Shown piece after piece: positions 1,731 to 29,009 of a stretch of 35,693 bases of DNA. A program made the position numbers and the translations under genes. The number at the start of each line of letters is the position of its first letter. The stretch's first letter is position 1. Origin of the DNA: a virus; the UHGV virus genome UHGV-0241471. One strand, given 5' to 3'. The notes under the pieces are model-generated. The model saw only the letters and a list, made by a program, of their open reading frames with translations, had not been told where the DNA came from and searched no databases.

Positions 1731-2831
1731 TCATTCCATTTCGAAATCATCAATCTTCACTTCAAGCTCCAGACTGGTCGTAAAACCGTTATCCGGGCTG
1801 ACAGTATGCGTCAGGGTGGTAATAGTCCATTCCGCATCATCTATCTGCTGTTTAAAGCCACTGACTTTCACTGGCATTTCCGTGTAGAGATCTGCCCGCC
1901 CTTCCGCCAGTTGTAGCGAGAATGACGCAACGCCGCGTTGCAGGCGTTCCCACTGCATTTTCGCCGCTCGTTCGGCGTTGCTCCGGTTGGCATAAGTGCG
2001 ATTAAGTACCAGCACGTTTTCATCCGTACCCACCAGGTAATCGCCCTGCTTCGCTTCCGGCTCTTTCTTCTGCTTCTTAGTTCTGCGCTTACGCTTCACC
2101 GTGGTGCTTTCTTTCTTCGCAGGTTCACGGGTATGCAACCAGCTGGCAATTACGCCCGTGTAGGCTCCGCGATCTGCCAGGGTAAAGCGGTGACTGTCGC
2201 CGTCCTTGCGTGTGATAGTGATCACTGGCAGTGGTTTACCAGTGGCGCTTTTGCCCTGCCCCTGCCGGATGAATAACAGATTGCCATTTTTCACCGACGC
2301 GATGGCACCGTACTGTCGCGCCAGTCGCATCAGAAAACTGCCGTCACTCTCATTAGTCTGGTCTATATGCTCCACGGGCTTATCCGACAGCTCTTTACCC
2401 AGTGCCATCTTCAGCTTGTGCCGCGCGGCTATTTCCTTCACCACTTCCCCGATGGTGGTGTTATGCCACGATTTTTCACGGCGGGTATTCAGGGTTTCCC
2501 GAAAATCAGCACTTCGCGCCCGGATAGTCAGGCGGTCCGGTGCGCCAGTGTGTTCAATCTCGTCCACCGTGAATGCCCCTTTCGGGAAAAGCGGCTGCCC
2601 CTTCCAGCCCAGCGCCAGCGTAATGACCGCACCACGGCGCGGCAGCACGATTTTTCCATCGGCGTCGTCCAGCTCCAGATCAAGCTGGTCCGCTTCAAAT
2701 CCCCGGTTATCCGTCAGCGTCAGCCCCATCAGGCGGTTGTCCAGCACAGTGGTGATATCCCTGCCTTCAATACTGATGCTGAATGCCGGAGTTTTGTTGC
2801 CTTTGTTAAGCAGTTCAGAGCTGAAATTCAC
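1731..2831 (-). CDS. Tail protein, P2 gpD-like
   Basis: 366-aa ORF in conserved P2 position between U and ogr; N-terminus typical of gpD family as recalled. Confidence 0.8.
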   Translation of the reverse strand: MNFSSELLNKGNKTPAFSISIEGRDITTVLDNRLMGLTLTDNRGFEADQLDLELDDADGKIVLPRRGAVITLALGWKGQPLFPKGAFTVDEIEHTGAPDRLTIRARSADFRETLNTRREKSWHNTTIGEVVKEIAARHKLKMALGKELSDKPVEHIDQTNESDGSFLMRLARQYGAIASVKNGNLLFIRQGQGKSATGKPLPVITITRKDGDSHRFTLADRGAYTGVIASWLHTREPAKKESTTVKRKRRTKKQKKEPEAKQGDYLVGTDENVLVLNRTYANRSNAERAAKMQWERLQRGVASFSLQLAEGRADLYTEMPVKVSGFKQQIDDAEWTITTLTHTVSPDNGFTTSLELEVKIDDFEME

Positions 2832-3313
2832 GACAGCAGCCCTCCCACCGTTTTACTGATATCGCTTAAGGCAGATGTTGCCGTTCCCTGCAGATTATTC
2901 AGTTGCGCACTGAGATCACCGAACATATCGGACAGGGATTCATCCACGCGTTTTAGCGACAGGGTGAACTCAATCCTGCGCGGCATACCGTCGCGGAAAA
3001 ACTCCGTTTTAGTCTGATTCAGTCCCTCAATCACATACATGCCGTAAATCGTGCCGCTGCCTTCAATCAGGGGCCATGCTTTCCCCTGTTCTGCCATCTG
3101 CTCCAGTGCCAGCAACGACAGCCTGCCGCCTGTTATTTCCGGCATAAGAACGCCAGAAAGCGTCAGCATGTCGTTATCCGGTCCCAGAAACTGCGTTGAC
3201 GGGCGTCGGTTAACCCGGCTGTTAGCCGCATGTCGCCAGCTGCGCTGATACTGCAGCTCCTGATACGGCACGGTGCGCAGCATAAACACGTATAATCCCA
3301 GCACCATCATCAT
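2828..3313 (-). CDS. Tail protein, P2 gpU-like
   Basis: 161-aa ORF, overlapping stop/start with neighbours, P2 order T-U-D. Confidence 0.8.
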   Translation of the reverse strand: MMMVLGLYVFMLRTVPYQELQYQRSWRHAANSRVNRRPSTQFLGPDNDMLTLSGVLMPEITGGRLSLLALEQMAEQGKAWPLIEGSGTIYGMYVIEGLNQTKTEFFRDGMPRRIEFTLSLKRVDESLSDMFGDLSAQLNNLQGTATSALSDISKTVGGLLS

Positions 3314-6300
3314 GCGTCGTATCCCCCCTGATCGCTGTAGTTACTCCTGGCTTTTGCCTTCAGCCTGCGTTCACGTTCATCAAGCTGGCGGGCCACCTCC
3401 CGCGCAATATCCTGCGCACTTTGTCCTGGCTGCGTCTGAATGATGATCTGCGTCGGTGCCTCAATCCGTTGAACGGGCGGCACAGTGGCTGCACGACTCA
3501 ACATCGCTTCGCCGCCTTTCGCGGGAAGTGCCAACGGATGCAACGGTGGAAGCTCTGCAGGCGCGGCAGCAACACCCATCATTCCGGCAACAACGGCAGC
3601 CAGTGCAGCTGTATTTCTCCGGCTGGTCACATTTGCCGGGCCGTTAACAATTTCCGGCCCGTTTTCACCGACGATGCCAAACTGCCCGCGCGGGATATAG
3701 CCGCCGCTGTCATACATCCCCGCAAAGCCATATCCCCATGACGGAAAACCACCCGATGGCATCATCACTTTACCGTCTGCATTCACCGTCGCAGGTTGCT
3801 GACGCGTCACTCTTTCCGGCAGTTTCGCCTTTGCAGCCTCTTTACTGACAATGCCGAGTTTCTCCAGCAACCAGGAAACGCCAGATTTCAGGGAGTCCAG
3901 CGGATGCATGACCATATTCAGCCCTTCCGCCAGTGCCTCCCCGAATCTCCGCCCCATTGCCGCTGCACTCTGCAGTTCGGCAGAGGTCGACTTAACGGGC
4001 GTCAGCAGATCAGTAAACCAGCCCCACAGCGCCTGCACTTTGTCGCCAATCCACTGGAACACAGGCTTAAGCGGTTCGAACGCTGCACTGATGGGACCTG
4101 CCGCCGCTTTGAATCCTTCCACCACGCCACCGAGAAATGCGGTGATGGGTTGCCAGTATTTCCAGACAACCAGTGCCACACCCGCCAGTGCAGCAACCAC
4201 AAGACCTATCGGACTGAGCAGAGCACCTAACAGACCAGATACGGCATACAGGGCAACGCGCAACATCGCCAGTGGACCAGATGCCAGTACTCGCAGCACC
4301 GTGCCTGTGGCAGCCAGCCCGCCGCGTAGTGCTGCCAGTGGATTCATAAACATCACAGCAACCGCACGTAAACCGGATAATCCAGACCGCAACAGTGCAA
4401 CCGGCGCATCTGCTACAGTTTTCAGGACATTTCCCGTCAGTGATGCCGTGCGGTGCAAAGACGACAACGGCGCAGTAAGTAAACCCGCTGCGTTGCCCGA
4501 TGAAGCAAGCCCGCGTCGCAGCAGTGCCAGTGGAGCGCCAGCCAGCCAGGACAACGCGCTGCTGGTTCGAGTTACTGCTGCCGTAACGGAAGGTAACGTT
4601 TTGATACCCAGCACAGAGAATCCCAGACGGATCACTGCCAGCGGCCCCAGCACTGCAGCCAGCGCCACCGCTAAGGTGCCGAGGCCTACGGTAACCGCAG
4701 CCACAACAGCCGCTACTTTCATCAGTGTGCCTGTCAGTTCCGGGTTAGCTTCCACCCAGCGGCGCAACGCCCCCGTAATGCTTTTCACCGTGTACAGAAT
4801 ATCCATCAGCGGCTGGCGCAGCGTTTCGCCCAGGCTGCTGAAGGTGTTCTGCGCTCCGGTTTTAACCAGCAACCACTGAGCAGAAAGTGAGTCCTTGTTG
4901 ATGTCGGATTCTTTCTGCATGGAACCGAGCGCATCATTGCCCGCTGTCAGTTTTAGCTGGCGCTGCAGTTCCGGCAGGTTGTTTGCCAGTTTCGCCGCGT
5001 CATCACCAAACTCTTTACCAAACAACATGGTCATGGCAGACAGACGCTTGTCCTGCGGCAGTGCGTTCACCTTCTCCAGCACACGCTGGATAGTTCCCAT
5101 CGCATCCTTCGTCATCTGCTTTTCAATCACTTCAGGATTGAGTTTCAGCAGATTCATCCCTTCAAAGAAACTCTTGCTTTGCATGGTGGCAATGGACAAT
5201 TCACGCACCATCGCGTTTGCTGCACTGGCTGCAACCTCCGGCGCAGCGCCCAGTGTCAGAAAGGTGGAACCCAGTGCCGCCGCTTTACGATAATCCAGAC
5301 GGTCAGCCACACCGCCCAGACGTTGCATGACATCAATGATGTCCGCCCCTTTTGACATGGCGTTATCATCCAGATAGTTCAGCGCATCGCCGAGCTGTTC
5401 AATATTACGGGTAGGTATTTTGTAGAGCTGGGCGATTTTCCCCAGACTTTCTGACAGTTCATCCGCTGGCAGCTCAAAGGCTATTGCCGCCTTTGCCGCC
5501 GTACTGGCGAAGGCCAGCAGGTCACGTTTCTGGTCTTCCCAGCTGTCGTCAGGGTTTGCGACGTTCATACGCGCACCACCTTCAACCAGTGCAGCGAAGT
5601 CCACCGCACCGTTTTCCATCGGCAACTGTTCGCTGGCAGCCTTGATGGCATCCTGCATTTCATAAAAACGTGCAGTGCGGTTGCCATTATCGTCACGCAG
5701 ACCATTGACCTGCTTTGCCACACCTTTCATGGCATCTTCCATGCTGGTATAGCTTTTTACTGCCGCCATCACTGGTGTCCCCATTGCCAGCCCTGCAGCC
5801 GTGGTGGTGGCTCCGGCTCCTGCAATACGATCACGCACCTCCAGCGAACGGGCATAACTGGCACGCGCCGCATTCATCCTGCGCTGAGCTTCCCCCAGTC
5901 GCTTCAGCCGCGCCTCCTGTTTTGACAATTCCTGGTTATAACGTGATGTTTCACGGGCTAAACGGGCAGTTGCTCCCGCATCATCTTTCGCAGAAATTCC
6001 CGCCCGATACAGTTCTGCACGCACAAGCGCCGTTTGCTTCTGCAAATATTTTTGTTGTTCTTCCAGGCGTTGGACTGCCAGCGTTTGCCGACCTAAAGCC
6101 ACAAGGTGCCGTTGTGATGGTTGTTCCATCGCTTCCAGCTCAGAACTAAGCAAATTTGCCTTCTGTCTGGCATAGTTCAGCCTGTCGCCTAACCTTTTGT
6201 TATCGGCCTGCAGCTTGCGAAATTTTTCCAGGCTGTTACCCGCCTGATTGAGTTGCTTTAATGCGTCACGGGAGTTTCTGATTGCGCCAGCCAGCTCTTT

Positions 6301-18004: not shown

Positions 18005-18655
18005 TCAGCGGCTGTCATTGCGCAGTCTGCGCTCCAGCTGCTGTTTGTCTTTTTTCACGCCACAGCGGGGATCGAGCTGTAACGCATGGTTGAGATGATT
18101 AAGGGCGGAAGCCGGATTGCTTTCACTCAGGACAGCGCCAATCGCTTTATGCAGACGCGCCCGTGACTGGTCCGGCATATCCAGACCGTCTGTCAGCTCC
18201 AGCGTCTGCAGCAACAGATCGGCATCAAAGCCGGTGGCGGCAAGCATTGCGCTCTGCGCTGCATCTGCCATTTCCTCTGCCAGCACGGTCTGCACGTTGC
18301 GGTTACCCAGCGGCATCACCCAGCCATGACGCAGGGCATGACGCCCGATATCCAGCGCCCCGGCATAATCTCCGGCATCAATGCGCCACAGCATCACGTA
18401 CATCAGCACGTCATCCTGTTGAGCGCCTCCGGCAGCCAGGACGCCCTCCGCCCAGGCGGCATATTTCGGCAGCAGCTCCACCTTTATTTCCGCTTTTTTG
18501 ACCGTGGACTGAACGCCCTTGAGACGGCGGCGGTCTTCCGCCAGTTGCAGCAGCATCAGGTCATAGCCCGACGCGTGGCGAACACTGCCGCCCTCACGGG
18601 CGGCCTGTTCAGCCTGAACGCGCAGGCGATGCTGCCGTGCGGGACTCAGGCTCAT
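18005..18655 (-). CDS. Terminase small (endonuclease) subunit, P2 gpM-like
   Basis: 216-aa ORF, conserved order N-M. Confidence 0.8.
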   Translation of the reverse strand: MSLSPARQHRLRVQAEQAAREGGSVRHASGYDLMLLQLAEDRRRLKGVQSTVKKAEIKVELLPKYAAWAEGVLAAGGAQQDDVLMYVMLWRIDAGDYAGALDIGRHALRHGWVMPLGNRNVQTVLAEEMADAAQSAMLAATGFDADLLLQTLELTDGLDMPDQSRARLHKAIGAVLSESNPASALNHLNHALQLDPRCGVKKDKQQLERRLRNDSR

Positions 18656-18658
18656 GGG

Positions 18659-19717
18659 TTACGCTCCGGTTTCTGCTGCAGCGGCGCTGAAATCGCCAAT
18701 CTGGATGTTTTCCACCAGTGCAGCGCAGCGGTAGTCCTCAACCACATAGGCTTCGTTAACGGATTCAAAATTTTCAATCCGGTCACGTTTCGGGTTGTCG
18801 ATAACTGAACGACGGCGAGTGTCTTCCTGCCAGTAGATGGACAGGTTATCCAGACGGGTGATCAGCAATGCATTCGGCGGGAAGAACGGCGCACGCACGG
18901 CCTGCAGGCCCCCCATACGTTTCTGGCTGATGATCATATCGGCAGCCAGTTTTTCACTGTTTTCCTGCTCTTTGTTGACCAGCGGGAAATACTTGTCAGA
19001 CAGCAGTTCACGCCCGCAAATCACCACCAGATCGTCATCGTCCTGGTAGACAACGTCAATAAGCTCATTGACGGCATCCATCACCACGGCGTCCAGGTTG
19101 GCATATTCGCCCCCTTTCCCGACTTTCACCGCACCCGGTGTGGTTTCACCGCCCGTGGTGGTGCTGCCCATGACGTGATCCGGTGCATCCTCACGGATTT
19201 TCTGTAACCAGCCTTTGTTCACATCCTGCAGCAGCGGGTTTTCGCTACGGTTGGAGGTTTTCGCACGCTTCACGCCGTTAAAGCCGATCATGATGCGGTC
19301 CAGTGCCTGACGTTTCACGATGGCGTCACGAATACGCACCTGGAAATCCTGAAACTTCGCCCACAGGTCCAGCTTCGCGTAGGTCAGTACCGTGTCAAAG
19401 TTGGTCTGCTCGCATTTGTATTCCACATCGACCATCAGCGTCGGATCGACAGGTTCACGCTCTTTCGCGGTGGTGTCAGTGGTTCCGGCAATGGTGCTGC
19501 CAACACCCAACCCCAGCAGCTGACCGGACTGCTCAGTCACTGGCGTGACGTTAATCAGCGTCAGGAAAGCGGCGGACTGCTGGATCTGGTCTTCCAGCGT
19601 CTGCTGCACGGACGGCTCCACGGTGAACTTGCTGGACAGCTCTTCAACTGCCACACCGTTCAGACGCGCCAGCTGCTGCAGGTAAGCGTTAAAAGCAAAG
19701 CGGGTATTCTTCTTCAT
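18659..19717 (-). CDS. Major capsid protein, P2 gpN-like
   Basis: 352-aa ORF, conserved order O-N. Confidence 0.9.
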   Translation of the reverse strand: MKKNTRFAFNAYLQQLARLNGVAVEELSSKFTVEPSVQQTLEDQIQQSAAFLTLINVTPVTEQSGQLLGLGVGSTIAGTTDTTAKEREPVDPTLMVDVEYKCEQTNFDTVLTYAKLDLWAKFQDFQVRIRDAIVKRQALDRIMIGFNGVKRAKTSNRSENPLLQDVNKGWLQKIREDAPDHVMGSTTTGGETTPGAVKVGKGGEYANLDAVVMDAVNELIDVVYQDDDDLVVICGRELLSDKYFPLVNKEQENSEKLAADMIISQKRMGGLQAVRAPFFPPNALLITRLDNLSIYWQEDTRRRSVIDNPKRDRIENFESVNEAYVVEDYRCAALVENIQIGDFSAAAAETGA

Positions 19718-19733: not shown

Positions 19734-20567
19734 TCAGCAATTGGTCAGAGTGTCAGCGGGGGCGTTACCGCCTGTTGCACGCTGGCGGTAGTCCTGGCGG
19801 CTGTCTTCTTGACTCAGCTTATTCACCAGTTCGTTAAAGGCGGTCTGCTGTGCCTGCAGGGCAGTCTCCAGCTCAGACAGGCGTTCTTCCTGCTCAGACA
19901 GGGATTTTTCGGTGCGCACGCTCAGGTTTTGCTGCTCAGTGGCGACCAGCTCCACGGCCTTATGCACATCAGAGAATCGGGCATCATCGGACTGCTCTTT
20001 TTTGGTGAACAGCGCCGTGACGCGGGCAAACAGGGACGGTTTGTCATCCTGGATTTCTTCCAGTTCGATCACCGTTTCCTCTGCAGCGGTAAAGAGATTG
20101 GCAGGATTCTGCTTGCGGTTTGCCAGCGGGTTATGGGCTGCACTGGCGCTGAATGTCAGCATTTCCGTACCCAGACTGGCGGGATCATCAGTGGCAGCCA
20201 GGCCGACCAGGTAGGCTTTGCCCGTATCAGCAAACTTCGGGCTGACTTCCATAGAGGTGAATAATTTCTGTCCTTTTTTCACCAGTTCCACCAGGGACTC
20301 CGTTGGCTCAACGTCGGCATACAGCGCCATCTTGCCTGCCAGCGGGCCTTCCGTGATTTCTTCAGCAAACAGCGCCGTCACCTTGCCGTAGCGGTTAAAG
20401 GTGCTGTCCGGCAGATAAGACTTGATGTGCTCAAGGTTAATCAGCGCGGTATACACCGCCGGGTTGTAGCTGGCTGCCATCTGTTCCAGCCATTCACGCT
20501 GGATTTCGCGTCCGTCGGTAGTGGCACCTTCCACCCCGATGCGAAAACGCTTTGCTTTCACTGTCAT
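19734..20567 (-). CDS. Capsid scaffolding protein, P2 gpO-like
   Basis: 277-aa ORF with coiled-coil C-terminus, divergent from terminase gene. Confidence 0.85.
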   Translation of the reverse strand: MTVKAKRFRIGVEGATTDGREIQREWLEQMAASYNPAVYTALINLEHIKSYLPDSTFNRYGKVTALFAEEITEGPLAGKMALYADVEPTESLVELVKKGQKLFTSMEVSPKFADTGKAYLVGLAATDDPASLGTEMLTFSASAAHNPLANRKQNPANLFTAAEETVIELEEIQDDKPSLFARVTALFTKKEQSDDARFSDVHKAVELVATEQQNLSVRTEKSLSEQEERLSELETALQAQQTAFNELVNKLSQEDSRQDYRQRATGGNAPADTLTNC

Positions 20568-20645: not shown

Positions 20646-20663
20646 TGTACCGACAACCACACA
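20646..20663. promoter_or_regulatory. Ogr-type late promoter element TGT-N12-ACA in the O/P divergent region
   Basis: TGTaccgacaaccacACA read directly; spacing fits the leftward capsid operon. Confidence 0.5.
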
Positions 20664-20709: not shown

Positions 20710-22476
20710 ATGAACACCACACTGACACCCGCAGATCTCGATCCCCGTCGGCAGGCCATGCTGCTGTACTTTCAGGGATACCGCGTAGCCCGCATTGCTG
20801 AAATGCTGGGCGAGAAAGTTGCAACCGTTCACAGCTGGAAAAAACGCGACAAGTGGGGTGACTATGGGCCGCTGGACCAGATGCAGCTCACCACCGCCGC
20901 ACGCTACTGCCAGCTCATCATGAAGGAGCACAAAGAAGGGAAAGATTTCAAAGAGATTGACCTGCTGGCGCGCCAGTCGGAACGCCACGCGCGGATCGGC
21001 AAGTTTAACAATGGCGGCAACGAAGCCGACTTAAACCCTAACGTCGCCAACCGTAACAAAGGCCCGCGCCGTCAGCCGGAAAAGAATGTTTTCACCGATG
21101 AGCAGATTGAGAAGCTGGAAGAAATCTTCCATTCCTCCATGTTCAACTACCAGCGCCACTGGTGGGAAGCCGGAAAAACCAACCGCATCCGGAACCTGCT
21201 GAAGTCACGCCAGATCGGCGCGACCTTTTACTTTGCCCGTGAAGCCCTGATTGACGCCCTGCTTACCGGACGTAACCAGATTTTCCTTTCCGCCAGCAAG
21301 GCACAGGCCCACGTCTTTAAGCAGTACATCATCGACTTCGCCAAAGAAGTGGAGGTGGAGTTGAAAGGCGATCCGATGGTGCTTCCTAACGGGGCCACGC
21401 TTTACTTCCTCGGCACCAATGCCCGCACGGCCCAGAGTTATCACGGCAACCTGTATCTGGATGAATATTTCTGGATACCGAAATTCCAGGAGCTGCGCAA
21501 AGTGGCTTCCGGTATGGCTATTCACAAAAAATGGCGACAAACCTATTTTTCCACGCCATCCAGCCTGACACACAGTGCTTATCCGTTCTGGTCCGGTGCG
21601 CTGTTCAACCGTGGGCGCAACAAGGCCGACAAGGTGGACATCGACCTGTCCCACAGCAATCTGGCCCCCGGTCTGCTGTGCGCAGACGGGCAATACCGCC
21701 AGATAGTCACCGTGGAAGATGCGGTGCGCGGCGGCTGTAACCTGTTCGACCTTGACCAGTTGCGCATGGAGTACAGCCCGGACGAATACCAGAACCTGCT
21801 GATGTGCGAGTTTGTGGACGATCTCGCGTCCGTGTTCCCGCTCAGCGAGCTGCAGGCGTGCATGGTGGACAGTTGGGAAGTCTGGACCGACTTTCATGCT
21901 CTGGCCCTGCGCCCGTTTGGCTGGCGCGAAGTGTGGATCGGTTATGACCCGGCAAAAGGTACGCAAAACGGCGACAGCGCCGGGTGCGTGGTGGTGGCTC
22001 CGCCAGCCGTGCCGGGCGGTAAGTTCCGCATTCTTGAGCGTCACCAGTGGCGCGGGATGGACTTCCGTGCCCAGGCGGACGCCATCAAAAAACTGACTGA
22101 ACAGTACAACGTGACCTATATCGGTATCGACTCGACAGGTGTCGGTCACGGGGTTTATGAGAACGTAAAAGCGTTCTTTCCTGCCGTCCGGGAGTTTGTC
22201 TACAACCCCAACGTTAAAAACGCCCTGGTACTCAAGGCCTACGACATTATCAGCCACCGCCGTCTGGAGTTTGACGCCGGGCACACCGACATTGCGCAGT
22301 CCTTTATGGCAATCCGTCGCGCCACCACCGCCAGCGGCAACCGCCCAACCTATGAAGCCAGCCGCAGCGAAGAAGCCAGCCATGCCGATCTGGCCTGGGC
22401 AACAATGCACGCACTGTTTAACGAACCGCTGCAGGGCGAATCCGCCAATACCAGCAATATTGTGGAGATTTTTTGA
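20710..22476 (+). CDS. Terminase large (ATPase) subunit, P2 gpP-like
   Basis: 588-aa ORF; deviant Walker A SRQIGAT and Walker B LYLDEY seen in translation. Confidence 0.9.
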   Translation: MNTTLTPADLDPRRQAMLLYFQGYRVARIAEMLGEKVATVHSWKKRDKWGDYGPLDQMQLTTAARYCQLIMKEHKEGKDFKEIDLLARQSERHARIGKFNNGGNEADLNPNVANRNKGPRRQPEKNVFTDEQIEKLEEIFHSSMFNYQRHWWEAGKTNRIRNLLKSRQIGATFYFAREALIDALLTGRNQIFLSASKAQAHVFKQYIIDFAKEVEVELKGDPMVLPNGATLYFLGTNARTAQSYHGNLYLDEYFWIPKFQELRKVASGMAIHKKWRQTYFSTPSSLTHSAYPFWSGALFNRGRNKADKVDIDLSHSNLAPGLLCADGQYRQIVTVEDAVRGGCNLFDLDQLRMEYSPDEYQNLLMCEFVDDLASVFPLSELQACMVDSWEVWTDFHALALRPFGWREVWIGYDPAKGTQNGDSAGCVVVAPPAVPGGKFRILERHQWRGMDFRAQADAIKKLTEQYNVTYIGIDSTGVGHGVYENVKAFFPAVREFVYNPNVKNALVLKAYDIISHRRLEFDAGHTDIAQSFMAIRRATTASGNRPTYEASRSEEASHADLAWATMHALFNEPLQGESANTSNIVEIF

Positions 22477-23201
22477 TGCCCCCAATCCCAACTAACCTCA
22501 TGACTATCGCGGGACTTCCGGTGGATAGCTCTTTCTTTGCTTACCAGTATGAGTGGAACACTAGCCCAAAGAGTAGAAACCGTGTACTCACAAAAATGCG
22601 CCAGGCAGGCGCGAATTTCTTTTTTTCCTATGAAGCCCTGAACGATGCACTGCATACCGGGCGTAACCAGATTTTCCTCTGCTGCAGCACAGCATCTGCC
22701 CTGACAGTCAAAACCTATATGTCAGCCTTTATAGATCAGGCCGCAACCTGGACACACCTTGGGAAAATAAAATCAGGTAAAGCGCATCTGGAACTACCTA
22801 ACGGTGCGGTCATTTATTTTATCGGGCCGAAAAGTCTCGCCGCCGCGCTCCATGGAAACGTCTATGTGTCAGAGTATGCCTGGGCGGACTCCCCGAAAAA
22901 TATGATTGCGCTCGCCAAAAGCCTGTCCATGCACGCGCGCTATCACGCTACCTACTACACCACCCCAAGCCCCAGCCCGGAAGCATGGCGGGAATACAAG
23001 AAGCTGATTGCCCGCAACAGCACAACCAGCATGATTTTTACCGCTGATGACGCTGCAGCATCCGGGGCAACGCTCGCAACCGGAGCCGCGCTCTTTGATG
23101 ATGAATGGCTTAATGACATGAAAAAAGAGTTATCAGCAGAGGACTGGAAAATGCTGTTTATGTGCGAATGGCCCCAGACTGACAAGGAGCAGGCGGCATG
23201 A
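22476..23201 (+). CDS. Truncated, divergent terminase-ATPase-domain paralogue inserted between terminase and portal
   Basis: 241 aa; by-eye alignment to gpP residues about 125-345 (e.g. ALNDALHTGRNQIFL vs ALIDALLTGRNQIFL; TYYTTPSPS vs TYFSTPSSL; LFMCEW vs LLMCEF); TGATG overlap with P stop and ATGA overlap with Q start. Confidence 0.6.
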   Translation: MPPIPTNLMTIAGLPVDSSFFAYQYEWNTSPKSRNRVLTKMRQAGANFFFSYEALNDALHTGRNQIFLCCSTASALTVKTYMSAFIDQAATWTHLGKIKSGKAHLELPNGAVIYFIGPKSLAAALHGNVYVSEYAWADSPKNMIALAKSLSMHARYHATYYTTPSPSPEAWREYKKLIARNSTTSMIFTADDAAASGATLATGAALFDDEWLNDMKKELSAEDWKMLFMCEWPQTDKEQAA

Positions 23202-24240: not shown

Positions 24241-24268
24241 CAGAGAGCGCTTTGCAAAGCGCCCTCTA
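24241..24268. terminator. Palindromic hairpin between convergent portal and SEFIR-like genes (putative bidirectional terminator)
   Basis: Perfect palindrome GCGCTTTGCAAAGCGC (24247-24262) flanked by T-rich runs on both strands. Confidence 0.5.
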
Positions 24269-24272
24269 ATTT

Positions 24273-25706
24273 TCATTCAATACTATCTAGACGACTAACA
24301 TTCATTTTATTGAGAAAGTCTCTATTAAAACCGAAATGATACCAGTTACTAGTATTTCGCTGGGCCTCACCCTCTGTCAGCTTTTGAGCCAAAAGTTTAC
24401 TGTCATCGATTCCGGTAATAACTGCAATACTCTTGAATCCTCTATGCTGTATTGCTCTTGTAAATAGAGGATATTTCTCATAGTGCCCGGAATACAACAA
24501 CATTTGCGGGTACCAAAAAATACCGGGATTAATGAAGGATATCATAAGAGCAACAAGATCAGCTTGTTTCAAATCATCGAAAGACACATCATCTCTAGTT
24601 GCACTTTGCTTTACTAACTCAGCAACAGGGGAATACAGTCGATAGTTTTCAGGGGACAATTTACTTTGAAGGTAATCAGAGCTTAAATATAACTCACTGT
24701 AATTAGCAAACTCCATTCCCGGACTGGTTATATGATCGGGTAGCAAATAAGATGTATGCAGTAATGTATGTACATGCTGGAAAGCTTCAATTTTTATTAA
24801 AGCCGCCAAAATATATAAAAACGTTTCATACGCAAAAATCTGATGGGGCAAAAACCATATTTCATTATATGAATTTACATTTTTCGGACGATTTCTAATC
24901 GCTAACATTACTTCCATAAACTGTAATAGTGCTTTGGAAAAGTCTTCGCCCTGCGTATCACCCTCAAGTAAAACCCAGTCTGTAATGGCATCCCTAACGG
25001 CAATAAGCTCTTTATGAATTTGCAAAACTTCCGCTGCAAAATCTTCAGTAGTTGGGTTTGTTACGACTTGTAGTGAGATACAATAATTTCGGCACACCTC
25101 TAAAAATTGCCTTCTGCAATCCTTTAATGTCTGCTTTTGATTTAAGACAGCTGATTTTAAAGTTTGAAATTTTGCATGAATTTCATACGTCGGTTTTGAC
25201 GTGTCTTGCTCTAAATAAACCGGAGGCTTACCTAATGGTGGCTTAGTAAATTCTGGTTTTCCATAAAGCAACCTGATTAAACGTTCCCAATTATCATTTT
25301 CTTTTTCTGGTGTTGAAAAATCAATATAGATTCTAGACTTCAGAAAGATTGGAGTATACGGCTCTCCATTATCTTTGTACTCAAATATTAATGGTATAAA
25401 TTTGGACTGCGACACGGATGAATATATTTCCTGGGAAATTATCATCGACTCAACACCGACACCATCTTTTCTTAAATCGGCTTTTTCTGAGTATTTTTTA
25501 TCACAAATGACTAAAACATGCGTAACCGTTTCATCTTGAACCATTCTTTCCATGTAATAATTTTTATCATCCCCTTCTTTCAAGTCATAAATATCTATGA
25601 CAGTTTCAACTCCATCTGCCGCCAATCGTTCAGCCATATCTTTGATATGTTGCTGATGAGTTTTACTTGACCAACTATAGGATATAAAAACTTTTGGCTG
25701 GATCAT
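24273..25706 (-). CDS. SEFIR/TIR-like domain protein (477 aa), candidate standalone anti-phage effector
   Basis: N-terminus KVFISYSWSS…IDIYD…FIPLIFEY fits the SEFIR/TIR pattern as recalled; about 300-aa helical C-terminal domain of unknown type; GGGAGG SD; visibly AT-rich versus flanks. Confidence 0.6.
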   Translation of the reverse strand: MIQPKVFISYSWSSKTHQQHIKDMAERLAADGVETVIDIYDLKEGDDKNYYMERMVQDETVTHVLVICDKKYSEKADLRKDGVGVESMIISQEIYSSVSQSKFIPLIFEYKDNGEPYTPIFLKSRIYIDFSTPEKENDNWERLIRLLYGKPEFTKPPLGKPPVYLEQDTSKPTYEIHAKFQTLKSAVLNQKQTLKDCRRQFLEVCRNYCISLQVVTNPTTEDFAAEVLQIHKELIAVRDAITDWVLLEGDTQGEDFSKALLQFMEVMLAIRNRPKNVNSYNEIWFLPHQIFAYETFLYILAALIKIEAFQHVHTLLHTSYLLPDHITSPGMEFANYSELYLSSDYLQSKLSPENYRLYSPVAELVKQSATRDDVSFDDLKQADLVALMISFINPGIFWYPQMLLYSGHYEKYPLFTRAIQHRGFKSIAVITGIDDSKLLAQKLTEGEAQRNTSNWYHFGFNRDFLNKMNVSRLDSIE

Positions 25707-26594: not shown

Positions 26595-29009
26595 TTAATA
26601 CAGGTTTCGCCACTTATCATCTTCCTGCAAACGCTGGTTCCGACAGAAGATACGCAGGCCTGCTCCTGACGGAATACTGCCACCGCGAAGGAGCAGATCG
26701 ACCTCTTTCTCGCTGCCATCAAATCCTCTTGACTTCAGTTCATAGACGAGCTGCTGTCGCTGATGGTCTGTAATTCGCTGTTTGTAGTCTTTACGCCGTT
26801 TCGGTTTCACCAGGCGTAACCTTGCAGCCAGTTCCCGGCGCTCTTTTTTGCTCATACTGTGCAGGTAATCGTGCAACTCCTTGTCATCCATGCGGGTAAT
26901 GTCCGTCCTGGTATCCCCATCAGCTGATTTGTCTTTCCCTTGTTGGTTCAAATTTTCAGCAAGGGGACAGTTATTGCCACGAGTCCAAGGGGCGCAAGCG
27001 CCCTGGTCGGCTGCCGCCTCCTGAACGTCAACGGCCTTACGAACCATTTTCCACTTCACGGCATGAGTGCAGATCTTGCCCTCTGCAATAGGTGACCAGA
27101 TGCCATAAATACGAATGCCGTGATCGCCATAGGCGGTCGGCTCTTCGTTGATTTCATAAGCAGTTCTGATGAGGTGATATTTACGGGGAACCAGTACGCC
27201 GCCCTGCTTCATGATGTAGGTGGCAAAACAACCAGCATCAGCAGCAGCCAGGATTGCATCAAGGCGCGGGTTATCCAGTACCGGCGCACCTGCTTTTTTG
27301 TCACCCTGTTGCCTTGCCGCCTGACCAGCCAGCAATCGCAGTTCACGGTAAGCCTGACGCCCCGGAATGCCAAAGAAGCGGAATTGCTGAACACGATGCA
27401 GAGACGCCCAGGCATTCACGTATTCAGCGTTATCACGCAGGGATTTACCCGTTTCCTTGCTGATCTCGCCAGCCAGACCACGCCCGTCAATGTTCTTACT
27501 GATATATTTCGCGATGTAGCTTGTCGGCGTTCCTTTGCGCGGGTTAATCAACTCAGACTTAAAGCGTGGTCCCGTGTTATTCCCCAGCTCCTCGCGGTCT
27601 TCACGAATGGCAAACTTACGCAACAAAGCAGTAATGGCGCGGCGATCTTTTTTGCGCATAAAACACAACAGGTGCCAGTGAACTGTACCGTCATGATGCG
27701 GCTCAGCCACCCGCACGCCATACCAGCGCAATCCGGCTTTGTGCATCGCCTTACGAAATGCAGCAAACATGCCAACCAGATAATCACTGCTTTGTCTTAC
27801 CGTCGCATTTGTCCAGGTCGGGTTGGGCCTGCCGTTATTTAGCGTGGAATGGAAACGTGACGGACAGGTGATGGTGTAGAAAACGGCGCAGTCACCGCGC
27901 ATTTCCGCGATAAGCTCCAGGCCTTTAACACAGGCCATCATCTCATTGCGGCGATGCGCAGGGTTGCTGCTGCTGGCGTTTACCACATCCTCCATGTCCA
28001 GCGTGTCGCCGTCTTCGTTCACCAGTTCATGAGAACGGAAAAACTCCAGCGACTTACGGCGCTGCTCACGTTTATGCATCACGGCTTCATAGCTGACATA
28101 GGGAGATGCTTTTTTGCTGACCAGACAGACAGCACGCAACTGCTCTTCCCGCCATTCGCAACGCATCTTCCATAATTTCCGATACCACCAGTCGGCGCAC
28201 AGCATACGCGCCAGCGAACCCGGAATGAGTTCATAGGGCACAGGTTTGCGGCGGTTTCTTTTCCGGCGGAGTTGCTCAAACGCAGGCGGTATGACATCCA
28301 GTCGCAGGGTTTCTGCTGCCACCTTTTCCCATGTCTTGCGGATTTCTTCCGGCTTAACATCATCGGAGGCGTACAAATCACCACAAGCGGCATCAAGACA
28401 CATGCTCATATGCGCAGCGACAAGGGTGGACAGGCGTTTCACCTGATCCTGACTCATTTCAGGCAGGCTCAGCAGACCGTCCAGCCCTTCATGGCTTGCC
28501 ATAAAACGAAAAGATGCAGATAGCTGGCTGTCGCGTACATGCTCCAGTCGTTCCAGGCATGGCTTAATCGTCTCACGCAAATAGCGGGAATAAGCCTTTG
28601 GCCTGCCCAGGTTGCTGAAGTATTTAATACGTTGCATCAGCGGCTTGCTGATATGGGAAGGCTGGGCGTTGACATCCGCCAGAATGACCATGTCTGGATT
28701 AAAACGCTGCTGCTCATGCGCCAGCTTTGCCCGGCTAATTAGCTTATCCTGCTCCATTTCGCGCTGGACAGGATCACGGGATTCATTAAAGAAATAACGC
28801 TCCCAGACCTGATCACTCAGTGCCTCGCGGCGCAGTTGTTCCTGCTCGTTATCGGCAGCGTACAGAGTGATCAGGTTTGAAAGCGCAGAAACCGGCGCAA
28901 CTTCCGCCGGGTCCAGATAAGGGTTAATGGCCTTTTTCGGGCTGTTCCATGAGAATGCTGCGGCAGCCTCGTTAAAGCCGCAGCAGTTGTTCATATCGGC
29001 ATGGCTCAT
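26595..29009 (-). CDS. Rolling-circle replication initiator, P2 gpA-like
   Basis: HuH-like VHWHLL and active-site tyrosine pair SYIAKYISK seen in the 804-aa translation; start codon uncertain. Confidence 0.85.

Follow-up and report, generated by a model that had tools for sequence, protein, structure and literature searches.

Organization of the P-X-Q region

The virus genome UHGV-0241471, analyzed as a single stretch of 35,693 nucleotides (the window), includes the genes for head formation and packaging of a P2-like (Peduoviridae) prophage, and between its large terminase gene P and its portal gene Q lies an additional open reading frame (ORF) at 22476-23201, referred to here as ORF X. Its product belongs to a family of short paralogues of the large terminase (TerL) ATPase domain that is typified by gene W of coliphage 186. 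An earlier note, made from the sequence alone, had stated that terminase and portal genes are adjacent in P2 and had described ORF X as wedged between them by overlapping stop and start codons. In the P2 record P is indeed followed directly by Q, the intervening gene being absent from that genome, and the overlaps are present on both sides in the window, 1 nt with the gpP gene and 4 nt with the portal gene. The TGA of P (22474-22476) and the ATG of ORF X share one base in the sequence TGATG, and the TGA of ORF X (23199-23201) overlaps the portal ATG (23198-23200) in the sequence ATGA. The ORF X and portal starts are each preceded, at 8 nt, by a Shine-Dalgarno sequence (GGAG and AAGGAG, respectively), an arrangement suggestive of translational coupling of ORF X to both P and Q. 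An in-frame TTG is found at 22473, upstream of the ORF X ATG; the homologues all begin at ATG.

Judged by its position, ORF X is transcribed late together with P and Q as one unit, since a scan ahead of it revealed no promoter-like site above chance and a late-activator dyad is located upstream of P; an independent promoter for ORF X was rejected on the former ground. The site equivalent to this dyad is annotated as "activator binding site; pO, pP promoters" in the P2 record and as "B protein; activation of pV and p12 promoters" in that of 186, and the terminators tQ (P2) and tW (186) occupy the position of the hairpin found 3′ of the window portal gene. In 186 the region is annotated as a single orf12 operon that extends from p12 to tW. 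The coordinates of these and neighboring features are listed in Table 1.

Table 1. Genes and sequence features of the head and packaging region of the window
Feature	Position	Strand	Basis
gpM, terminase small subunit	18005-18655	-	
gpN, capsid	18659-19717	-	
gpO, scaffold	19734-20567	-	
TGT-N12-ACA dyad in the O-P intergenic region; presumed Ogr/B late-activator site	20646-20663	.	pattern match, position, homology
gpP, large terminase, 588 aa; Terminase_5, Terminase_6N and Terminase_6C; canonical KSRQIGAT and LYLDE	20710-22476	+	
GGAG Shine-Dalgarno of ORF X, within the end of gpP, 8 nt before the ATG	22464-22467	+	read from sequence
ORF X, 241 aa, ATPase-domain-only gpP paralogue; ATG at 22476, TGA ends at 23201	22476-23201	+	
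P-loop codons K40-M-R-Q-A-G-A-N47 of ORF X	22593-22616	+	
Walker B strand N-V-Y-V-S132-E133 of ORF X	22857-22874	+	
C (coupling) motif T159-Y-Y-T-T-P-S165 of ORF X, conserved	22950-22970	+	alignment
AAGGAG Shine-Dalgarno of the portal gene, within the end of ORF X	23184-23189	+	read from sequence
gpQ, portal, 346 aa	23198-24238	+	phrog_68, 1.4e-174
GC-rich hairpin with T-runs on both strands, 3′ of the portal gene; probably terminates both the P-X-Q operon and the bSEFIR gene that converges on it	24241-24268	.	
bSEFIR defence gene, 477 aa, convergent with the portal gene	24273-25706	-	PADLOC PDLC03957, 1.6e-102
Replication gene A	26595-29009	-	

Within ORF X a GC-rich hairpin (TGCGCC-AGGCA-GGCGCG followed by AATTTCTTTTTTT; 22597-22623, + strand) resembles an intrinsic terminator. 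It overlaps the P-loop codons, the Asn47 codon AAT forming part of its tail. If translation were uncoupled, it could attenuate transcription into the remainder of ORF X and onward into the portal gene, but it could also be a chance occurrence; across the region 10 terminator-like sites were detected against 4.5 expected.

The TIR/SEFIR protein encoded in the variable region that separates the portal gene from replication gene A is annotated as a "SEFIR domain-containing protein" in Escherichia coli LS4 and is typical cargo of the P2 cos-proximal defence hotspot, a site at which other ORF X-containing prophages carry a reverse transcriptase, an AIPR/SIR2 pair or an insertion sequence element. 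ORF X is not cargo of this kind: it lies inside the P-Q operon, and neither PADLOC nor NCBIfam has a model that matches ORF X or 186 W.

Homology to the large terminase and predicted fold

The similarity of ORF X to gpP is significant in both pairwise and domain-model alignment. BLASTP aligns residues 18-232 of ORF X with residues 142-368 of gpP at 33% identity (E 2e-32), and multiple alignment extends the match back to approximately gpP residue 126. The earlier note had placed the homologous core at about residues 125-345 of the terminase; the homology and its start were borne out, whereas its end lies further on, near residue 370. Only a Terminase_6N domain (PF03237, residues 42-233, 7.8e-15) is detected by Pfam in ORF X, in agreement with the prediction that the N-terminal region and the nuclease domain are missing, and there is no match to Terminase_5, which corresponds to the N-terminal part of gpP, or to Terminase_6C, the nuclease. 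The protein ends at a hinge motif, MCEWPQ, and so lacks the RNaseH-like C-terminal nuclease domain that characterizes a full TerL.

An AlphaFold2 (AF2) model of ORF X, built from a 41-sequence alignment (pLDDT, the per-residue confidence, 83.6; pTM, the predicted template modeling score, 0.83), finds its best matches among Protein Data Bank (PDB) folds in the TerL ATPase domains of P74-26, T4 gp17, D6E and HK97 (template modeling (TM) scores of 0.6-0.73), and also resembles the TerL present in the Avs3 complex 8dgc. The ORF X fold is thus predicted to be a complete TerL ATPase domain, comprising the RecA-like core and the lid. These structural relatives emerged only from the fold search, as no true match was obtained when the gpP sequence was compared with those of solved structures. 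The gpP of the window is itself 64% identical to P2 gpP and 63% identical to 186 Orf12.

Relationship to gene W of coliphage 186

A gene of the same size and position is already on record in phage 186, where a 248-amino acid coding sequence (CDS; 1215-1961) is flanked by those of the P2 P homologue Orf12 (1961-3730) and the portal Orf2 (196-1218), with overlapping codons. The original 186 record names it "W protein; similar to Orf12" (AAC34147 / NP_052250). ORF X is 32% identical to 186 W by BLASTP (E 3e-34), and W is 37% identical to its own terminase, Orf12 (E 3e-44). ORF X, W and proteins intermediate between them have a common start (at about gpP residue 125), a common end at the hinge motif (MCEW / CDW) and, relative to gpP, two single-residue deletions. 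In a neighbor-joining (NJ) tree, which is distance-based only and has long branches, all gpPs are separated from all short paralogues with 100% bootstrap support. ORF X is therefore best regarded, on alignment evidence, as a divergent orthologue of 186 gene W and a member of the same family, and the shared boundaries, shared deletions and bootstrap split suggest, as the simplest account, that this family arose from a single ancient partial duplication of gpP.

Two database searches yielded approximately 95 cluster representatives of 225-254 aa, from Escherichia, Salmonella, Citrobacter, Klebsiella, Enterobacter, Leclercia, Pantoea, Pectobacterium, Hafnia, Edwardsiella, Yersinia, Buttiauxella and Limnobaculum. 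In every context examined for this set the gene order was P, X, Q in a P2-like element, and the order recurs with overlapping codons in E. coli, Yersinia, Limnobaculum, Buttiauxella, Pantoea and phage 186. Deposited phages that carry the gene, roughly 20 of 489 P2-like phage records, include 186, PSP3 (gp2), EtG, Midge, SI22, SW9, BIS20, vB_YpM_MLG42 and 500465-1, as well as two Yersinia YenM phages (vB_YenM_201.16 and 56.17). A survey of P2-like genomes, proposed in the earlier note, thus confirms that the gene is unusual by comparison with P2, but it is not new, being found in 186, PSP3, EtG, SW9 and the YenM phages. In the same vein, the note had allowed that ORF X might prove to be an ordinary conserved component with intact ATPase motifs; the gene is conserved in some Peduoviridae lineages, with motifs that are intact in the 186-type W proteins and altered in the clade to which ORF X belongs.

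What has been found at this locus is hence the rediscovery of a known but unexplained gene family, on record since the 186 genome was deposited. The family is named "terminase large subunit domain-containing protein" by the Prokaryotic Genome Annotation Pipeline (PGAP) and is included in PHROG 3746. No account of the function of 186 gene W, or of a gene intervening between P and Q, was found in the literature searched, which lay outside the original 186 papers. Gene W is probably one of the 186 head genes defined by conditional-lethal mutants; if so, polarity on the coupled portal gene offers another explanation for that phenotype. As far as could be determined, three aspects are undescribed, namely the divergent subfamily in which replacements in Walker A and Walker B covary, the fact that catalytic residues have been lost repeatedly across the wider family, and the dispensability of the gene for an identical terminase.

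Several records of family members have peculiarities of their own. RefSeq labels 186 W, PSP3 gp2 and the EtG, SW9 and YenM homologues "terminase large subunit," giving two apparent TerL genes per genome, and in 186 the portal CDS, too, bears the gene label W. In 500465-1 (NC_049342) the ORF X homologue and the portal gene are both split by frameshifts, which are probably sequencing errors.

A further subgroup of short terminase-ATPase paralogues (the P0195 type, with GAD and SE motifs) was detected on IMG/VR contigs (match 5001-5684). Its members are encoded directly after replication gene A or a 3′-5′ exonuclease gene, on the early strand and convergent with Q-P across cos, and in those phages P is followed directly by Q. 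Since this subgroup is encoded outside the P-Q pair, the family can evidently work without translational coupling to P and Q.

Active-site residues

The earlier note had called ORF X catalytically suspect, reading the Walker B box LDE of the terminase as VSE and the Walker A-like SRQIGAT as MRQAGAN. Alignment confirms both substitutions: gpP KSRQIGAT corresponds to KMRQAGAN in ORF X, and LYLDE to VYVSE, in which the Asp is replaced by Ser132 and the catalytic Glu133 is retained. The P-loop keeps its Lys, Arg, Gln and Gly, and its terminal residue, Thr in gpP, has become Asp in the clade, with Asn (AAT) in the window allele. The exact ORF X protein is encoded on 71 contigs from several genera, which shows that the GAN allele is not an error, and the conservation of the non-canonical residues across the clade rules out an alignment artefact. 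ORF X thus departs at the Thr and the Asp from the canonical TerL active site (Lys with Thr/Ser, Asp-Glu), and from the Walker motifs of 186 W. The description as suspect holds to the extent that Walker A has lost its Thr and Walker B its Asp, but it does not imply a dead enzyme, the Lys, the Arg-Gln pair, the Glu, the Q-motif and the C-motif being invariant in the clade.

The two substitutions are linked. All gpPs and 186-type W proteins have K-x-RQ-x-GAT together with h-h-h-D-E, and the ORF X clade has GAD with S-E, or with G-E in the Yersinia type; GAT is always paired with DE, and GAD always with S, G, P or A followed by E, a perfect covariation. The paired change would shift a carboxylate from the Walker B to the Walker A end of the pocket, and we infer a rearranged metal site rather than random decay. 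Across the alignment of 41 family members, conservation is highest in the Q-motif (F21, Q24 and W27 invariant), the P-loop (K40, R42, Q43, G45 and A46), the Walker B strand (G127, Y130 and E133) and the C-motif (T159 and S165).

These observations raise the question whether ORF X could be a fully active ATPase in which the Mg2+ ligands have been swapped (Asp in Walker A, Ser in Walker B), and a working and possibly required subunit of the motor, as 186 W may be. The perfect covariation and the invariance of the remaining catalytic residues in the clade are what such an enzyme would display, and 186 W is canonical and named in its record after a genetically defined gene. Nevertheless, this possibility is improbable. 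The widespread window allele has Asn rather than Asp, and among eight close sequences there are three distinct changes to the pocket, N47 being accompanied by R42H (WP_001717244, in E. coli LS4 and 2011C-3911, and also in phage 500465-1) and by Q43L (E. coli ET650). Other family members lose the Lys and the Glu altogether, and neither the same terminase nor close portals depend on the gene, as detailed in the next section.

The extent of such loss was examined by a profile search over 1.84 billion representatives, in which proteins of 205-290 aa were classed as short. The residues K/R/T(S)/D/E are kept in all 59 full-length terminases recovered, and the catalytic residues deviate in 30 of the 48 short representatives, in some of which the Lys has given way to A, L, C, Q, E or N, and the catalytic Glu to N, D, H or Q. 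These deviations argue that catalysis may not be strictly needed across the family. One degenerate variant (ITASRQIGCD / YVPNYAW) was confirmed to occupy the slot between P and Q; for the most degenerate representatives (P0150, P0211 and P0179) scans of viral contigs returned nothing or full-length terminases only. The idea of a trans-acting arginine finger, prompted by the lack in X and W of a counterpart to the Arg in the NARTAQS box of gpP, was rejected, as full-length relatives do not conserve this Arg and have K, C or M at the position.

Distribution and accessory status

Among the P2-like terminases of E. coli, the type found in the window is the most frequent (about 1,200 complete genomes), and its 99-100% identity to terminases of Klebsiella and Salmonella phages indicates very strong conservation across host genera. 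Among E. coli records, 1,195 contain a terminase of this type at ≥95% nucleotide identity, and only about 21 E. coli genomes contain ORF X. In a prophage of E. coli CE10, the terminase is identical to window gpP except at 1 of 588 residues, and Q comes immediately after it, the P-Q junction being the same TGATG, GGAGATTTTTTGATG, as that between gpP and ORF X in the window. Portal genes with 94% nucleotide identity to that of the window are likewise found in prophages that lack ORF X, and phage records such as Cartapus, SEN8 and vB_EcoM-813R9, with terminases 99.7-100% identical to that of the window (99.7-99.8% for Cartapus and SEN8), yielded no match resembling ORF X. The existence of near-identical terminases and close portals without ORF X led to the rejection of co-adaptation of P or Q with it, and argues that ORF X is dispensable in this lineage, where it is an accessory cassette exchanged by homologous recombination rather than an obligatory part of the motor. 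In NC_041848, a P2-like phage from E. coli O157:H43 T22, a gene for the A subunit of cytolethal distending toxin is located just past the portal gene (5651 onwards), within the corresponding variable region near cos, and the terminase is split into two CDS.

An alternative is that ORF X is an interference factor, a poison subunit directed against the packaging of competitors such as P4-like satellites or co-induced P2-like prophages. Its composition is that of a dominant-negative protein, in that an oligomerizing ATPase domain is present without the working domains and with its catalytic residues altered; E. coli genomes contain up to 3-5 places that match the P-X-Q region; and P4 relies on the terminase of its helper (PMC9122126). 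Such a role is nonetheless decidedly improbable. The gpP of the window is identical to that of relatives without ORF X, so that self and competitor could not be distinguished at the level of the terminase, and ORF X is made only with the late genes of its own phage, whose packaging would be poisoned equally. Furthermore, phage 186, which carries W, is a competent P4 helper.

Selection and recombination

Estimates of dN/dS (the ratio of non-synonymous to synonymous substitution rates) by the Nei-Gojobori method for eight E. coli loci gave values of 0.2-0.3 for ORF X, at dS of 0.06-0.78, compared with 0.01-0.08 for P and 0.05-0.1 for Q. ORF X is therefore constrained by purifying selection and yet evolves several-fold faster than either neighbor. 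Between the window and strain A38, for example, P is 100%, ORF X 80% and Q 89% identical, and when ORF X distances are compared with those of P and Q (mirror-tree), ORF X saturates at 33-47% identity.

Sliding-window comparison shows that ORF X is mosaic, with 22476-22700 contrasted against 22700-23201. Its first ∼150 nt are 99% identical to a 235-aa type (E. coli A38 and MFDS1016424), the remainder, to 23201, is 100% identical to a 241-aa type (LS4 and 2011C-3911), and the 3′ quarter of gpP likewise switches relatives. These switches place recombination breakpoints inside the two genes, and no clean X-Q module was delineated by the breakpoints within ORF X.

The same data bear on whether ORF X is simply a functionless remnant of the partial duplication, kept only for the signals that couple translation of the portal gene. 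Deviating catalytic positions and absence from most relatives would accord with this view, which is, however, close to refuted. The frame is intact and the length is held at 225-254 aa across proteins down to 33% identity, the dN/dS values remain at 0.2-0.3 at dS up to 0.78, and conservation is structured around the nucleotide pocket. Phages without ORF X, moreover, couple Q to P at the same junction, where no spacer gene is needed.

Possible roles of ORF X

The explanation favored here, tentatively and with a little less than even confidence, is that ORF X is a late-expressed, non-canonical ATPase-domain subunit that modulates packaging. Such a subunit would bind nucleotide with little or no hydrolysis and, by associating either with gpP subunits or with the motor once docked on the portal, would tune how that motor assembles or works. 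Cutting cos or translocating DNA would be beyond it, because it has no nuclease, no gpP-type N-terminus for binding of the small terminase subunit (TerS) or DNA, and no C-terminal domain. The conserved nucleotide pocket, co-expression with P and Q and long retention in several lineages point instead to an action in packaging through the ATPase-domain surfaces that ORF X would have in common with gpP.

Several considerations weigh against a role as a modulating subunit. P is 99-100% identical between phages with and without ORF X, and ORF X differs by up to 23%; an invariant P beside a variable ORF X gives no sign of co-adaptation with a partner. A fast, mosaic and patchy gene is more typical of genes engaged in conflict than of motor parts, and the population pattern of ORF X fits a conflict gene equally well. 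The GAD/SE subgroup that is encoded after replication gene A, on the other side of cos, indicates that the family does not depend on coupling to P and Q, and the amber alleles of 186 W could be polar on the coupled portal gene.

Some of these points lead to a different proposal, namely that ORF X performs no packaging work and is a TerL-mimicking decoy or sponge, made late and occupying host or prophage factors aimed at the terminase ATPase domain. Its targets could be sensors of the Avs1-3 type, which wrap around the fold of TerL, or inhibitors of packaging comparable to TerI of Listeria. Avs families are known to recognize TerL by its fold through direct binding (PMC13581612), the ORF X model resembles the TerL of an Avs3 complex, and terminase-blocking prophage proteins exist, as in the Listeria TERi system (bioRxiv 10.1101/2025.02.27.640495). 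The features described above also form the pattern of a conflict gene: ORF X is optional, recombinant and patchy (in about 2% of E. coli prophages with this terminase), it evolves 3-10 times faster than its neighbors while remaining under selection, neither P nor Q is adapted to its presence, and catalytic residues are expendable in the wider family, with the shape of the pocket conserved in the ORF X clade. On the other hand, no TerL decoy was described in the literature searched, a stoichiometric decoy would be weak against a sensor that fires at low occupancy, and ORF X might itself trigger such sensors. The motifs of 186-type W are, in addition, fully canonical, which a pure decoy would not need. 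On balance a decoy role for ORF X is unlikely, although it is the main rival to the favored reading.

Extended to the whole W/X family, the proposal would be that these proteins are virus-encoded mimics of the phage's own large terminase that absorb Avs1-3-type immunity or terminase-blocking inhibitors, the rearranged or degraded catalytic site keeping the mimic from disturbing packaging. This generalization is rather unlikely. If true, a conserved viral pattern would here have its own decoy, and this would be a principle of counter-defence that has yet to be described for terminases.

Large terminases are usually regarded as motor proteins that are highly conserved and present in single copy. 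Some P2-like phages, the model phage 186 included, nevertheless have a second, ATPase-only copy of unexplained role, and in the sublineage of the window this copy is optional and fast-evolving, with an apparently rearranged metal site, beside a true terminase that is virtually invariant. At stake is whether such paralogues are regulatory motor subunits, pseudo-enzymes or decoys, and the natural existence of phages with and without ORF X that have the same terminase makes a clean experiment feasible. There is also a point of annotation, in that the label "terminase large subunit" applied by pipelines produces phage records with two TerL genes.

Comparison with known systems

The closest likeness of ORF X is to 186 W. 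Both are inserted between a P2 P homologue and the portal gene, their start and stop codons overlapping those neighbors in the same way, both belong to a group of 225-254-aa proteins with a single Terminase_6N domain and the same boundaries and small deletions, and they group together against all gpPs. The two are, however, only 32% identical, 186 W has the canonical TKSRQIGAT and VYLDEF where the ORF X clade has GAN/GAD and SE, treated here as a subfamily difference, and a lid-region segment of roughly 15-20 residues in W has been lost from ORF X.

With the TerL ATPase domains (P2 gpP; T4 gp17, 2o0h/3cpe; P74-26, 4znl/7ks4), ORF X shares the predicted fold over its whole length, together with the Q-motif, the P-loop Lys, Arg and Gln, the catalytic Glu and the C-motif. 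It differs in being a separate gene product with neither a nuclease nor a gpP-type N-terminal domain, and in the replacement of the Walker A Thr and Walker B Asp that are kept in 59 of 59 full-length relatives.

Oligomeric P-loop and RecA-like machines have non-catalytic paralogous subunits, as exemplified by the alpha versus the beta subunit of F1-ATPase. ORF X is similar to a subunit of the alpha type in that the pocket is kept, catalytic residues are altered and the protein would be co-made with its catalytic paralogue; it differs in being optional in this lineage, and a ring with gpP is hypothetical. The Listeria TERi system also involves a phage-encoded protein, with the packaging step as a plausible target in both cases. 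TerI, however, is small and expressed in the lysogen, with dedicated anti-TerI immunity proteins, whereas ORF X is a late-operon paralogue of TerL without partner genes, and no homology to TerI is claimed.

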